Shown piece after piece: positions 49,585 to 53,942 of a stretch of 64,000 nucleotides of DNA. Position numbers and translations under genes: made by a program. Numbering within the stretch: the first letter of the stretch is position 1; every line of letters starts with the position of its first letter. The stretch comes from Longimicrobiales bacterium (GTDB taxonomy: Bacteria; Gemmatimonadota; Gemmatimonadetes; Longimicrobiales; Gaopeijiaceae). Location of the stretch: contig CBDFMQ010000002.1 in assembly GCA_965249725.1 (NCBI GenBank), positions 1,632,001-1,696,000 on the forward strand, written 5' to 3'. The notes under the pieces were generated by a model, which searched no databases, was not told the origin of the DNA, and worked only from the letters and a program-made list of their open reading frames with translations.

Positions 49585-49777
49585 CAGCTCAGCGGCCAGG
49601 AAGACCGTTTCGATTGGCGACTCGACGCTCAAGTCGGTGGCCGATGCTGCGGCGTACGTTCATCCGTTCACGTCTAAGAAGAGCCCGTGAGAGCCGATTC
49701 GTAACGGTGGATGAAATGGGGGGACGAGCAACGTCACTGAATACACAAGTAATTTATATGGGGATTATACGCTTGAC

Positions 49778-49806
49778 TTGACTGGCGGCTCGTATTTTGC
49801 TATCTT
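49778..49806 (+). promoter_or_regulatory. Putative sigma-70 promoter of the transposase
   Basis: TTGACT-17 nt-TATCTT overlapping the left TIR. Confidence 0.55.
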
Positions 49807-49842
49807 CCTATAGGGTAAAACGTTACACCATAGGGGGTTAGC

Positions 49843-50784
49843 ATGGCTGGACCCAGAAAGCATTACCGGCGCGGGATCTCGATGATGGAGGTCTCCGATA
49901 TGTTCTCGACCGAGGCGAGCGCAACCCGCTGGTTCGAGTCCTGGCTCTGGCCGGACGGCGAGATCACCTGCATGAAGTGCGGGAGCACGGACGCCTACCG
50001 CGTCAAGAGCGGGAAGCCGATGCCTTACCGGTGCCGTGATTGCCGCCAGTACTTCAGCCTCAAGACCGGCACCGCGATGGAGCACAGCCCGCTTCCGCTC
50101 CATCTGTGGGGCTGGGCGATCTACCTGGAGATGACCAACCTCAAGGGCGTCTCCAGCATGAAGCTCGCCCGCGATCTCAATGTCCGGCAGGCTACCGCGT
50201 GGCATATGCTCCACCGGATTAGGGAAGCGTTCGCGGACGTCGCCTCCAACTTCGACGGCCCGGTCGAGGTCGACGAGACCTACATGGGCGGGCGTCAGCG
50301 GAACATGCCGAAGCACAAGCGGGCGCCGGGCCGTGGGTCGGTGGGCAAGACGGCGGTGGTCGGGATTAAGGATCGGCCTACAAGGCGCGTGGCCGCCCGC
50401 GTGGTCGAGAGCACAGACAGGGACACGCTCCAGGGTTTCGTGAAAGAACGCACGAAGCCTGGAGCCAAGGTTACACGGACGAGGCACGGGTCTACGATGG
50501 CCTAGAGAACCGCGAGAGCGTCAAGCACTCGGTCGGGGAGTATGTCCGGGGCATGGCCCACACGAACGGCGTCGAGTCCTTCTGGTCGATGCTCAAGCGC
50601 GCCCACCGTCTATCACAAGCTGAGCGCGAAGCACCTGCAGCGGTACGTCTCGGAGTTCGCGGGCCGTCACAACATCCGCGAAATGGACACGCTCGCCCAA
50701 CTCCAGCACGTTGCCCTGGGACTGGTCGGGCGGCGCCTCATGTACCGCGAGCTGGTGGCAGATGGTAGTGGGCAGGTGGGATAA
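49843..50784 (+). pseudogene. IS1595-family transposase with two frameshifts (~50472, ~50605)
   Basis: CMKCG..CRDC and VEVDETY; continues in other frames as TDEARVY, HTNGVESFWSMLKR and YHKLSAKHLQRYVSEF. Confidence 0.92.
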
Positions 50785-50876
50785 GGCCGGCTCGGAGTCT
50801 CCCCGGGCCATACTCCATAAACCAAATGTTGATCTACATGTCCCCTCGGCTATATATTTTTTTATGAAAAGACCAC

Positions 50877-50907
50877 TCCGTTAAAGGCGGTATCCGCCTT
50901 TAACGGA
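50877..50907. promoter_or_regulatory. Perfect 14-bp inverted repeat, candidate operator or hairpin
   Basis: TCCGTTAAAGGCGG-tat-CCGCCTTTAACGGA between an AT-rich promoter-like stretch and the next ORF. Confidence 0.6.
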
Positions 50908-50916
50908 TATTACCCC

Positions 50917-51597
50917 GTGGAGCGCATCGCCATGCCCACCCAAATCGCGTTGGATCCGCCAGACGAAAATCGGTACCGTACCGCCCTGCTCGAATCAGCA
51001 CCCGCGGGCTTCTTCAGTGCGCTGATTCGAGCGTTCCAGATCCAGTATCGGAATAGCCACGAACACGTGCGCGGCCTCTATCGAAAGCCGGAGGCCCACG
51101 ACGCATTGGGCACTGATCGACGGTCTCGCCTTGAAGAAGCAACCCGTGCTGTCGCCGAAAGATTCGGGATATCCTGTCCAGCCGTGATGAATCGGATGAA
51201 TAGTTCGTATCACCGCGAGTTGCGGATGGGTTCCGTGATTCTTACCCAGTCGTGCTCGCATGACGGAGATGTTCGCGGCGCGGTGTTCCGGAAAAAGCTG
51301 GCTGAACAATACAATATGTTCTCGATCACCGAGGAAATTGACATAGAATTCGAAGCCTTGATGGCCGAGGACGAGTGTGCGTATGGAATCATCATACACG
51401 GACCCCATTCCGACGACCCGGGTCAGCTCTTGTACATGAATGTGGTGTTTCCGCACGCGGAGCAGGATCGGTACATCACTCGGGTCAATCTCTTAAGCGA
51501 ATTCTCGGTAGTCGTTCCGAGCACAGTGCCGGACGAAGAAATAGCCAAGGAAGTGGCCATCAAGCCTCGTCGGATTCGTAAGGACTTGGAGGGATAG
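50917..51597 (+). CDS. Hypothetical protein, candidate toxin of a RosmerTA-like pair
   Basis: 226-aa ORF ending 6 nt upstream of the HTH-peptidase gene; function inferred from context only. Confidence 0.65.
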   Translation: MERIAMPTQIALDPPDENRYRTALLESAPAGFFSALIRAFQIQYRNSHEHVRGLYRKPEAHDALGTDRRSRLEEATRAVAERFGISCPAVMNRMNSSYHRELRMGSVILTQSCSHDGDVRGAVFRKKLAEQYNMFSITEEIDIEFEALMAEDECAYGIIIHGPHSDDPGQLLYMNVVFPHAEQDRYITRVNLLSEFSVVVPSTVPDEEIAKEVAIKPRRIRKDLEG

Positions 51598-51603
51598 AGA
51601 ATA

Positions 51604-52755: not shown

Positions 52756-52905
52756 GAACGCTCCGGCGATGGCGGCAGGGCTTGAAGATCGGCCCTGGAC
52801 GATGCTCGACGTGGTGGAGCGGATGGACCCGGCGAGATCAGGAAGCCGCCGCCAACGCTGACGACAGTGGACCGGCCCAAGACCTACACGACAACCAAAA
52901 ACTGA
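52756..52905 (+). pseudogene. C-terminal remnant of an IS1-related DDE transposase
   Basis: Translates as APAMAAGLEDRPWTMLDVVERMD, matching the TPAMAAGL.D..W tail of this family. Confidence 0.55.
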
Positions 52906-52949
52906 CGGCTGTCATACAACTGTAGGGGTGAAGGGGGAGGAGAAAACGT

Positions 52950-53022
52950 GGCCCCGTAGCTCAATGGATAGAGCAACCGATTAGCGACCGGAAGGCTGCG
53001 GGTTCAAGTCCCGCCGGGGTTC
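52950..53022 (+). tRNA. tRNA-like gene with AGC anticodon, inside IS1595
   Basis: GGCCCCG TA GCTC AATGGATA GAGC A ACCGA TTAGCGA CCGGA AGGCT GCGGG TTCAAGT CCCGC CGGGGTT C; perfect D and T arms; two anticodon-stem mismatches; no G3:U70. Confidence 0.7.
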
Positions 53023-53034
53023 ACGCTTCTCCCT

Positions 53035-53208
53035 CTAGCTGTCCTTCAAAGGATGGCTCTCGATCATATTTTCCAGCTTGTCGATGCGCAGATCCATCTG
53101 TTCGAGTCGCGTCTTTAGGTTAGTGAACCGCTCCGGTAGCTGGCCAACAGCAGCCTCCAATCGGTTCAACCTATCCTCGATACCGCCCGTATCGGCTCGT
53201 AAGCTCAC
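53035..53208 (-). CDS. Small coiled-coil protein (57 aa)
   Basis: VSLRADTGGIEDRLNRLEAAVGQLPERFTNLKTRLEQMDLRIDKLENMIE; GTGA-coupled to the upstream ORF. Confidence 0.5.
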   Translation of the reverse strand: MSLRADTGGIEDRLNRLEAAVGQLPERFTNLKTRLEQMDLRIDKLENMIESHPLKDS

Positions 53209-53369
53209 CCATCCCTCCGGTCTGTTTCTCGCCGTTCCTCCAGCACCTTGCGGACCTTGGGGTCTTTCGGGCGGAGGAGTGCCCGTGCGACGTCGCTCAG
53301 TTTGGCACCCTTGTAGCGCGGGTTCACGGATACCGCGTCGGGCATGGGCTCCTGCTGTTCCTCGCTCAT
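53205..53369 (-). CDS. Small hypothetical protein (54 aa)
   Basis: MSEEQQEPMPDAVSVNPRYKGAKLSDVARALLRPKDPKVRKVLEERR; below the ORF-track length cutoff. Confidence 0.5.
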   Translation of the reverse strand: MSEEQQEPMPDAVSVNPRYKGAKLSDVARALLRPKDPKVRKVLEERRETDRRDG

Positions 53370-53559
53370 GCGGTCAAGCTACGGGGATTGTCCCTAACGT
53401 CAAGTCGTTCGTCAGACTAGGCACGCTACCTGGTCGAGCATGACGTCGGTGCCCCTCTAGGTCGAAGGTGGCGGTGAAGCGCCGCCACGATAGGTTTGTA
53501 TGGGACGTCGCAAGGCGTGACGGGGGGCAGTCGCAAGAGAGATTGTCCTGGGGGTAAGC

Positions 53560-53784
53560 ATGAGCCTGGAACCTTGCCGCGAGTGCGGATCCCCCGTCGC
53601 GACCGGGGCCAAGACATGCCCAAAGTGCGGGGCCAAGAAGCCGCACGCCTCGCCCGCCGAGATAAAGCTGGACGATATCACCAAGTCGGGCATGGGCTGC
53701 GGATGCCTCCTCATGATACTGGGCGTCGCACTTCCCCTCGCTGCGATCGTCATTGTGGCGATTATCGGGACGATTTTCGGGTGA
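53560..53784 (+). CDS. Zinc-ribbon membrane protein
   Basis: CRECG...CPKCG followed by a C-terminal TM helix. Confidence 0.75.
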   Translation: MSLEPCRECGSPVATGAKTCPKCGAKKPHASPAEIKLDDITKSGMGCGCLLMILGVALPLAAIVIVAIIGTIFG

Positions 53785-53942
53785 CGCCTACTGTCAAGTC
53801 AAGCGTATAATCCCCATTTATATCGCGATTCGCGCCACTAGCGATCCGCTTAGCGTACCACAACACGCGGAGCTGTGCCCGAGCCACCACGCCCCGGCTG
53901 CTCATCCTCGGCGGCGCCGAGGCGGATCCCGGTGCTCGGGCT

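Follow-up and report, generated by a model that had tools for sequence, protein, structure and literature searches.

How a putative anti-phage gene pair comes to lie, complete, inside an insertion sequence (IS) whose own transposase is broken is the question raised by a locus of a Longimicrobiales bacterium (Gemmatimonadota; assembly GCA_965249725.1, contig CBDFMQ010000002.1, positions 1,632,001 to 1,696,000 of the forward strand). The window refers here to this whole stretch of 64,000 nucleotides, and coordinates are counted from its first letter. In this study, we propose that positions 49752-53823 of the window represent a 4,056-bp transporter IS of the IS1595 family together with its target-site duplications, with a broken transposase and an intact RmrT-RmrA (RosmerTA) cargo, likely a toxin-antitoxin system of abortive-infection defence, and we give this reading a probability of about 0.8. 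As a non-autonomous IS1595-family transporter IS with RosmerTA cargo the element is a new example, in which vehicle and cargo are both of kinds already known. It would represent an anti-phage toxin-antitoxin system that is packed in a transposon of the smallest kind and has stayed intact although the transposase died, and thereby one concrete route for defence genes into genomic islands.

Boundaries of the element and decay of its transposase

The element is bounded by terminal inverted repeats (TIRs) of 23 nt, GGGGATTATACGCTTGACTTGAC at 49760-49782 (+) and its perfect complement at 53793-53815 (-), and is flanked by two copies of the 8-bp target-site duplication (TSD) ATTTATAT, at 49752-49759 and 53816-53823. 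A first-pass annotation of the window, made from the letters alone, had described perfect 23-bp TIRs and an 8-bp TSD, and direct reading, a repeat finder, which reported the ends as its longest inverted pair (I1), and a genome-wide end scan all found them free of mismatches. Throughout the 4.16-Mb genome the 23-mer occurs at up to four mismatches only at the two ends of the element, with one 5-mismatch match elsewhere, and the element as a whole is single-copy. A scan of one genome per species (596 Gb) for the end pattern GGGRATTATACGCYTGNCTTGA, in which about one chance match is expected by arithmetic, returned 33 loci that collapse to about 22 places; both ends were present in 12 cases, and 11 of the 12 show perfect 8-bp duplications, mostly A+T-rich. 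Since the identical end sequence bounds these 12 paired elements, the ends in the window are not due to chance, and on this sequence evidence they belong to a real, active IS lineage.

The transposase region (49843-50784, +) matches the Pfam families Zn_ribbon_IS1595 (PF12760, 7e-8) and DDE_Tnp_IS1595 (PF12762, 1.3e-13) and, above the model cut-off, the NCBIfam model for IS1595 family transposases (NF033547, 2.5e-28), which bears out the assignment to IS1595. The traits of the family are present, namely a DDE transposase of the IS1595/ISXO2 type with an N-terminal zinc ribbon, short TIRs and an 8-bp duplication, and between 50785 and 53792 the element encloses rmrT, rmrA, a tRNA-like gene and an open reading frame (ORF) of 74 amino acids (aa), all unrelated to transposition, which makes it a transporter IS. 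It was for the IS1595 family that the category of transporter IS was set up (Siguier et al. 2009, as cited in PMC3129680 and PMC11891212), and passages of the two citing papers name transcription regulators, methyltransferases and resistance genes as the passengers. As far as these passages describe them, such ISs share with the window element the single DDE transposase with N-terminal zinc ribbon, the short TIRs, the 8-bp duplication and the internal passengers, whereas the window element differs in its transposase pseudogene, its RosmerTA cargo and the inversion of its own small ORF. We found no paper describing RosmerTA on an IS1595 element, in a literature search outside of which lay the full text of Siguier et al. 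2009 and the supplements of the cited papers. An autonomous IS1595 element has its transposase in one open frame and that of the window is broken, thus the element is a non-autonomous member of the family.

The pseudogene is spread over three frames (49843-~50469, ~50472-50606 and ~50608-50784), as seen from Pfam, NCBIfam, alignment to relatives and read-derived contigs. Pfam finds the zinc ribbon, together with the first half of the DDE domain, in 49843-50505, and the final 22 positions of the profile match in a different frame. Alignment to intact relatives locates the first change of frame near 50470 (GAKV/YTDE) and the return near 50606 (KRAH/VYHK); the stretch in the second frame reads YTDEARVYDGLENRESVKHSVGEYVRGMAHTNGVESFWSMLKRAH, after which the original frame resumes at VYHK. 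According to the same alignment, the 45 displaced codons hold the second Asp and the Glu of the predicted catalytic triad. Intact transposases of relatives are single ORFs of 328 aa (genome G007) and 334 aa (Acidimicrobiia), and their alignment to the window runs through three frames. Taken in its proper frame, each piece is still 52-93% identical to relatives, with the middle piece 93% identical to that of locus L043, and because of this the two frame breaks look recent.

It might be supposed that the frameshifts are assembly errors, or are programmed, and that the transposase is functional, as the three pieces are otherwise well kept and contain no stop codon in their proper frames, the ends and the duplication are perfect, and the genome is an assembly of three contigs. 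Such a reading is very improbable. Contigs built independently from the reads of three sequencing runs show no difference over 50264-50557, 50577-50680 and both element junctions and list no variant at either break; moreover, the breaks bracket the very stretch with the second Asp and the Glu, neither site has a slippery run on direct reading, and intact relatives use a single open frame. The three runs represent one sample, possibly the assembly's own source, a point that weighs against our interpretation of a decayed element, and thus their agreement excludes an assembly slip and does not amount to independent biology. The two frameshifts reported in the first-pass annotation are upheld by the alignment and by the read-derived contigs, and its picture of a single-IS vehicle with decayed transposase and intact cargo agrees with the frame breaks and with the full-length, open rmrT and rmrA.

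The same annotation had suggested that the element might be mobilised in trans, for which this genome offers no donor. Neither a closely related transposase nor a second copy of the ends was found in its 4.16 Mb, and the other IS1595-family transposases of the genome are ~32-37% identical to the G007 transposase used as query, with none of them beside these ends, thus no donor for trans-mobilisation is evident here. One of these relatives, an intact 295-aa transposase of a distant subgroup at 46049-46936 (+), 36% identical to that of G007, lies 3 kb upstream of the element. We propose that the element would have arrived by transposition into an A+T-rich 8-mer and would have lost transposase function afterwards, so that it would now be fixed unless the cell gains a cognate transposase.

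The RosmerTA pair and the predicted fold of its toxin

The toxin gene rmrT (50917-51597, +) opens with GTG at 50917 and likely starts at ATG 50932, giving a product of 221 aa, and is followed after 6 nt by the antitoxin gene rmrA (51604-52725, +), whose product combines an N-terminal XRE-type helix-turn-helix (HTH), an M78 (ImmA/IrrE) zinc peptidase with H204-E205-x-x-H208, and a C-terminal domain; both genes have a GGAG box ahead of the start codon. Both genes are open and full length against their family profiles, in keeping with the earlier description of the passengers as intact. RmrT matches three RmrT models of PADLOC (6.5e-14, 1.7e-10 and 2.6e-5), and RmrA matches 14 RmrA models (best 2.1e-117) as well as Pfam HTH_3 (2.5e-10) and Peptidase_M78 (5e-22); among 55 homologues of RmrA, E205, H208 and H212 are invariant and H204 is nearly so. 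With a profile of 87 sequences the RmrT family was found in four of 401 genomes of the phylum, each time with rmrA directly downstream, and in 30 of 80 viral-contig loci, which had been picked for the presence of an RmrA relative, RmrT lies directly upstream of rmrA on the same strand (30/30). Since both genes match PADLOC models and are neighbours in every RmrT-holding locus examined, the identification is firmer than the "RosmerTA-like" of the first-pass annotation. By its sequence features, RmrT-RmrA is a conserved two-gene unit that fits the sequence-level definition of RosmerTA, and a toxin-antitoxin function, in anti-phage defence or addiction, is likely from family membership.

By definition, RosmerTA pairs a Zn-peptidase antitoxin with a toxin of unknown function, and it was reported that the system protects against phage and that a strain without rmrA was unobtainable (10.1101/2022.05.11.491447). 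RmrT toxins are described as diverse, that of Gordonia phage Kita depolarising membranes (PMC10440598). The window pair has the same order as the systems of these two sources (Millman et al. 2022 preprint; Ernits et al. 2023, PMC10440598), toxin first and HTH/M78 antitoxin second, and both match PADLOC models. As far as the two sources go, the tested systems came from other bacteria and a Gordonia phage, whereas the window pair rides inside an insertion sequence, and Kita RmrT depolarises membranes, whereas the model of the window RmrT has no predicted membrane segment and a predicted fold with a weak likeness to nucleases. Another parallel is found in ImmR/ImmA and CapH/CapP, where the HTH and the M78 protease reside on two proteins and which control an integrase or an operon of the cyclic-oligonucleotide-based anti-phage signalling system (CBASS); RmrA, which also matches PADLOC capP (1.4e-19) and capH (3.8e-10), joins both in one chain, and its partner is a putative toxin.

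The first-pass annotation had spoken of an uncharacterised toxin. This still holds for its activity, but RmrT is not family-less: a full HMMER pass over 1.84 billion representatives collected 298 relatives (clusters at 50% identity) at E <= 0.001, so that the family comprises at least 298 clusters, and it is modelled by PADLOC as RmrT. The relatives are ~215 aa long, and the best are 36-39% identical to the window RmrT. Other searches with RmrT (50917-51597) were poor in matches: it falls into no Pfam family, Pfam having matched one of 87 family members, weakly; a word-based protein search recovered only the window's own RmrT; a search of the ESM Atlas gave only unnamed clusters; and a PDB sequence search with the family profile gave no match at E <= 1.

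The G+C content at third codon positions (GC3) is 0.64 in rmrT and 0.63 in rmrA, against 0.80-0.91 in the transposase pieces and a genome median of 0.78; only 8% of the long ORFs of the genome have a GC3 of 0.65 or less, thus the values of rmrT and rmrA fit a cargo of foreign origin, as does the presence of the RmrT family in four of 401 phylum genomes. A sigma-70-like promoter match (TTGATC, 18 nt, TATATT; 50829-50858, +), found by consensus scan as a pattern match only, lies ahead of rmrT, and between the two the repeat finder placed a perfect palindrome of 14 bp + 14 bp with a 3-nt loop (I3, 50877-50907), possibly an operator or a hairpin. No shared palindrome was found upstream of rmrT in the relatives G097, G419 and G156, thus the operator idea is a guess. 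We suggest that the promoter-like site likely drives joint transcription of rmrT and rmrA, that RmrA would restrain RmrT and repress the operon through its HTH, and that the toxin would be set free upon phage infection.

Toxin-antitoxin pairs on mobile DNA are classical stabilisers, and the pair might thus be an addiction module only, which keeps the element or the island by post-segregational killing and gives no phage protection. We consider this rather unlikely, with a modest chance of being true. It would suit the cargo having stayed intact while the transposase decayed, and an IS1595-family element in G419 has a Panacea-domain gene of antitoxin type beside its own RosmerTA pair. On the other side, the RosmerTA systems tested to date protected against phages, according to the portions of the reports cited above; the element is located in an island together with Dsr1, and the same IS lineage bears cargo of restriction-modification type elsewhere.

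What RmrT does to the cell may be approached through its predicted structure. A confident AlphaFold2 model from an 87-sequence alignment (predicted local distance difference test, pLDDT, 84.3; predicted template modelling score, pTM, 0.76) comprises three long N-terminal helices and a mixed sheet. When this model was aligned to every representative chain, the best VIA-align match was the restriction endonuclease NaeI (Z 8.5, root-mean-square deviation 3.7, 134 aligned), on a scale where a best Z of 7-8 is common for models without a true match, as the tool itself warns. Eleven chains reached Z >= 5, ten of which are, by their entry titles, restriction-endonuclease-like or Holliday-resolvase nucleases (NaeI, EcoRV, SfiI, SwaI, DrdV, Hjc, 3ndh, 1y1o, DpnI and 3ijm), the eleventh being Rep15. 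The Foldseek search of 50917-51597 that the first-pass annotation had suggested gave no match at E <= 0.001 in PDB and BFVD, though weak rows repeatedly name Cas4-family proteins, CinB, Hjc, UL24 and other nucleases of PD-(D/E)xK type, and a tRNA-splicing endonuclease is among the weak fold matches. The residues conserved in the family are D57, R63, R64, E68, N87, T105, R120, H156 and P174. Against a nuclease speak, besides the lack of a Foldseek match at this threshold, the weakness of the resemblance to the restriction-endonuclease fold even at the best Z of 8.5, and the conserved residues themselves, which do not form the canonical D...(D/E)xK motif, there being acidic residues on a helix among them but no Lys. 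Thus RmrT may, at somewhat less than even odds and as judged from the model, be a nuclease-like enzyme with a fold of restriction-endonuclease type; because Z 7-8 is ordinary for unmatched models and the conserved residues miss the classical motif, this is a lead and not a finding, albeit a first, weak structural lead for this toxin family.

The IS lineage, its cargo in other genomes and the surrounding island

The hosts of the lineage defined by the shared ends are mostly Longimicrobiales (Gemmatimonadota), with single cases in Chloroflexota, Acidimicrobiia, Rhodothermales, Bryobacterales and Candidatus Multivorans, and the paired elements measure 91, 801, 1456-1458, 2999, 3021, 3119, 4567 and ~16,100 bp. 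A further locus, in Nitrospira (L038), was rejected as a member; its end pattern lies inside the gene of ribosomal protein L5 and is probably the one expected chance match. A scan of metagenome contigs for the end pattern gave one locus only (L063). The canonical relative, in G007, is 1458 bp long and consists of one open 328-aa transposase and an 82-aa ORF that ends inside the right end. Reduced and interrupted forms were also observed: three 801-bp, internally deleted copies in one genome, in which the N-terminus of the transposase is fused to the small ORF (L031, L049 and a third copy, L020), a 91-bp unit that runs end to end (L046), and an element of ~16.1 kb (L053+L047) whose transposase is split by a nested ~13.7-kb insertion and which is still flanked by TTCCCGAA. 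In the genus of the window's genome, a homologue of the small ORF (66% over 41 aa) was noted at 518-640 of L024 (G002:C6), with no IS end within the fetched 1.2 kb.

Several members carry cargo of their own. A 560-aa methylase-Mrr fusion (L036 and its interrupted twin L033) and a 468-aa methylase-HNH fusion (L040) lie between transposase and small ORF, and an 829-aa N6 methylase lies between the C-terminus of the transposase and the end (L043). In Chloroflexota (L035, 6042-8871), a complete-looking type IIG restriction-methylase (5.5e-101) and a specificity subunit (9.4e-54) read towards a solo end, with no transposase found within 6 kb of that end; the cargo of L060 is surface-protein-like. 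L036, L040, L043 and L035 thus share with the window element the same type of ends, transposases that are 52-93% identical piece by piece and defence-type cargo behind the transposase, but theirs is restriction-modification cargo, often with an intact transposase, whereas the window has toxin-antitoxin cargo and a broken one.

RosmerTA itself recurs at IS1595-family ends. In G097, locus L054 (6001-8078, equal to loci L028/L062) holds an AlpA-like gene, RmrA (8e-117), RmrT (1.8e-8) and then a MobC-like gene. This cargo begins 18 bp inward of a solo end, and the genome has no other end of this type; an array of nine tRNA genes stands 1.6 kb outside the same end. In G419 (C21), a 4.46-kb IS1595-family element of a different subgroup (L078, 3126-7587), with 25-nt perfect ends and flanks that match at 7/8 positions, contains a Panacea-domain gene, a tRNA-like gene, rmrA and rmrT, along with a transposase whose reading is divided between two frames. 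In three of the four Gemmatimonadota genomes with this RmrT family, RmrT is thus located in or beside IS1595-family ends, and given also the restriction-type cargo elsewhere in the lineage, IS1595 elements merit a place in surveys of defence-gene mobility.

The element of the window is inserted between the stop codons of two convergent genes, one for a protein like a leucine-rich-repeat metallopeptidase (47500-49584) and one for a 474-aa protein (53943-55367, -). The island in which it resides starts after core genes (SecA and a BamD-like gene) and a tRNA-like gene at 39711-39784; among its other contents are transposase fragments, another IS1595, a Dsr1 defence gene and a P4-type integrase. 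The Dsr1 protein (57439-61188, -; 1248 aa, with a SIR2 domain, PADLOC Dsr1 1e-91) and the adjoining integrase (61538-62884, -) suggest that the element sits in a defence or mobile island.

Beyond the single origin of the reads, several observations count against our reading of the locus. There is no clean empty site in relatives, where the first-pass annotation had expected one to be sought: in G002, a left-flank homologue breaks off precisely at the IS end and the right side differs, in G005 only the right-flank gene is present, and no joint across an empty site is among the joints listed in the read-derived contigs. The left-flank homologue is an intergenic block of 82 bp, 79% identical between window 49661-49742 and L070 1573-1654, on another contig of that same-genus genome, and is single-copy in the window's genome. 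The link between IS1595 and RosmerTA is local, as two queries detected no IS1595-type transposase within 3 kb in any of the 80 viral RmrA loci. Finally, the architecture is unusual for the lineage, with the small accessory ORF inverted and displaced, thus a history in which cargo was dropped into a slot of the element is too simple.

The right-hand part of the element and its tRNA-like gene

The first-pass annotation had counted micro-ORFs among the passengers. Three are indeed present, of 57, 54 and 74 aa, but one of them belongs to the IS itself: the 54-aa ORF (53205-53369, -), which starts 446 bp from the element end, is a homologue of the small accessory ORF of the lineage by tblastn and by an alignment (A5) with invariant N16, P17, G21, A22, L31, P34 and P37. 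In six relatives this ORF has the strand of the transposase, follows it and ends inside the right end; in the window it runs opposite to the transposase and is without the C-terminal part that relatives encode through the right end. The 57-aa ORF (53035-53208, -), coiled-coil-like by weak, sub-threshold Pfam matches, overlaps the stop of the 54-aa ORF by 4 nt; in L060, tblastx weakly matches it to a stretch that likewise lies downstream of the small ORF. The 74-aa ORF (53560-53784, +; GC3 0.79) has an N-terminal zinc ribbon (Pfam Zn_Ribbon_1, 2.4e-6) and a hydrophobic C-terminus, and no relative of it was found among the fetched IS loci. As the small ORF is inverted, displaced and shortened, and the 57-aa ORF keeps an L060-like order, the right part of the element is rearranged backbone, and the inverted ORF would mark either an internal inversion or the relic of a second, inverted copy.

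The second of these would make the element a collapsed composite. It seems unlikely to us that the right ~800 bp (53023-53815), with the inverted small ORF, the 57-aa ORF and a terminal repeat, are the remnant of a second inverted, internally deleted IS copy, in which case the RosmerTA pair, the IS1-type remnant described below and the tRNA-like gene would be chromosomal or island DNA trapped between two copies. Such an origin would account for an inverted small ORF without its C-terminus, when six relatives have it co-directional and terminated by the right end, and it has precedents in the internally deleted 801-bp copies of G007 and in L060, where transposase, small ORF and, by a weak match, the 57-aa-like ORF follow one another on one strand. 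The ends of the window element are moreover identical, whereas the left and right ends in G007 differ at 2-3 positions; identical ends are, however, likewise found in the cargo-carrying relatives L036 and L040. No transposase remnant is detectable in 53370-53790 on either strand, the sequences at the two ends are unlike beyond the 23-nt ends, and an internal inversion accounts for the same facts. The notion that both ends are the left ends of two copies was dropped, being without support in the sub-terminal sequence. We retain a single, rearranged transporter IS as the preferred reading.

Between rmrA and the small ORFs stand two further pieces. Positions 52754-52861 (+) encode ...NAPAMAAGLEDRPWTMLDVVERMD, the C-terminal ~35 codons of an IS1-type transposase, which match the C-termini of ORFs of 284-290 aa in G434 and G436; one of these ORFs has its best NCBIfam score, under the model cut-off, with IS1 family transposase (6.5e-16). 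By this match the segment is a transposase scar, and the cargo is a mosaic. The second piece is the tRNA-like gene (52950-53022, +), the presence of which is affirmed by ARAGORN, which calls Ala(AGC), by Rfam (tRNA, 55.2 bits against a gathering score of 29) and by a cloverleaf fold with AGC as anticodon-loop triplet. It is degenerate: two of five pairs in the anticodon stem are mismatched (27-43 and 31-39), the minimum-free-energy fold keeping three pairs there, and the acceptor stem has G1-U72 and G2-U71. To our knowledge, A34 is not normally used by bacteria outside tRNA-Arg(ACG). In its anticodon stem, short of five pairs, and in its anticodon the gene departs from a functional tRNA. Its identity to the tRNAs of its own genome does not exceed 74%, and among real tRNAs it comes closest to Arg(TCT) and Arg(ACG) of relatives (76-79%).

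An odd tRNA-like gene thus recurs beside the RosmerTA pair, and it might be a working third part in a unit RmrT-RmrA-tRNA, for instance by mimicking the target of RmrT, by acting as its decoy or by replacing the RNA that it attacks. Two different IS1595-family elements, those of the window and of G419, hold rmrT, rmrA and an aberrant tRNA-like gene on the same strand, with a gap after rmrA of 224 nt in the window and 36 nt in G419. Both tRNA-likes score above 50 bits on Rfam tRNA and both are odd, the window copy by its mismatched anticodon stem and the G419 copy (84 nt, 51.9 bits) by a long variable arm, a Pro anticodon and C at position 33; the tRNA-splicing endonuclease among the weak fold matches of RmrT would suit the idea. 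It is nevertheless improbable. In the 30 viral loci with this RmrT family, the 600 bp that follow rmrA never hold a same-strand tRNA, G097 and G156 have no tRNA-like gene in that position, and the likeness between the two tRNA-likes is confined to the T arm, which is the best-conserved part of any tRNA. In the window, the IS1-type remnant stands between rmrA and the tRNA-like gene. Ordinary tRNA genes occur near some viral RosmerTA loci (7/80 hold one), thus the tRNA may simply have come along with the pair. Most likely, the margin of a tRNA-integrated element supplied the tRNA-like gene, which was carried along with the pair, and the IS1-type remnant would have been picked up with the module as well.

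A wider proposal, a long shot in our estimation, is that IS1595-family ISs serve as minimal, one-gene immune shuttles across several phyla, two subgroups of which captured RmrT-RmrA-tRNA-like modules in Gemmatimonadota, the RNA being a decoy or target mimic of a restriction-endonuclease-fold toxin. If this were true, one IS lineage would ferry methylase-nuclease fusions, type IIG restriction systems and RosmerTA across phyla.

Other tRNA genes were noted in these genomes. About 20 form one array outside the window (G000:C3:1903222-1906030), and L011, L014 and L015 hold arrays of 17-20 tRNAs in related genomes. Within the window, the tRNA-like gene at the border of core genes and island (39711-39784, -) is a second odd one, with 34.9 bits on Rfam, G3-U70, A73 and the anticodon AGC; its T arm and that of the copy in the element are the only two matches to that 19-mer in the genome.

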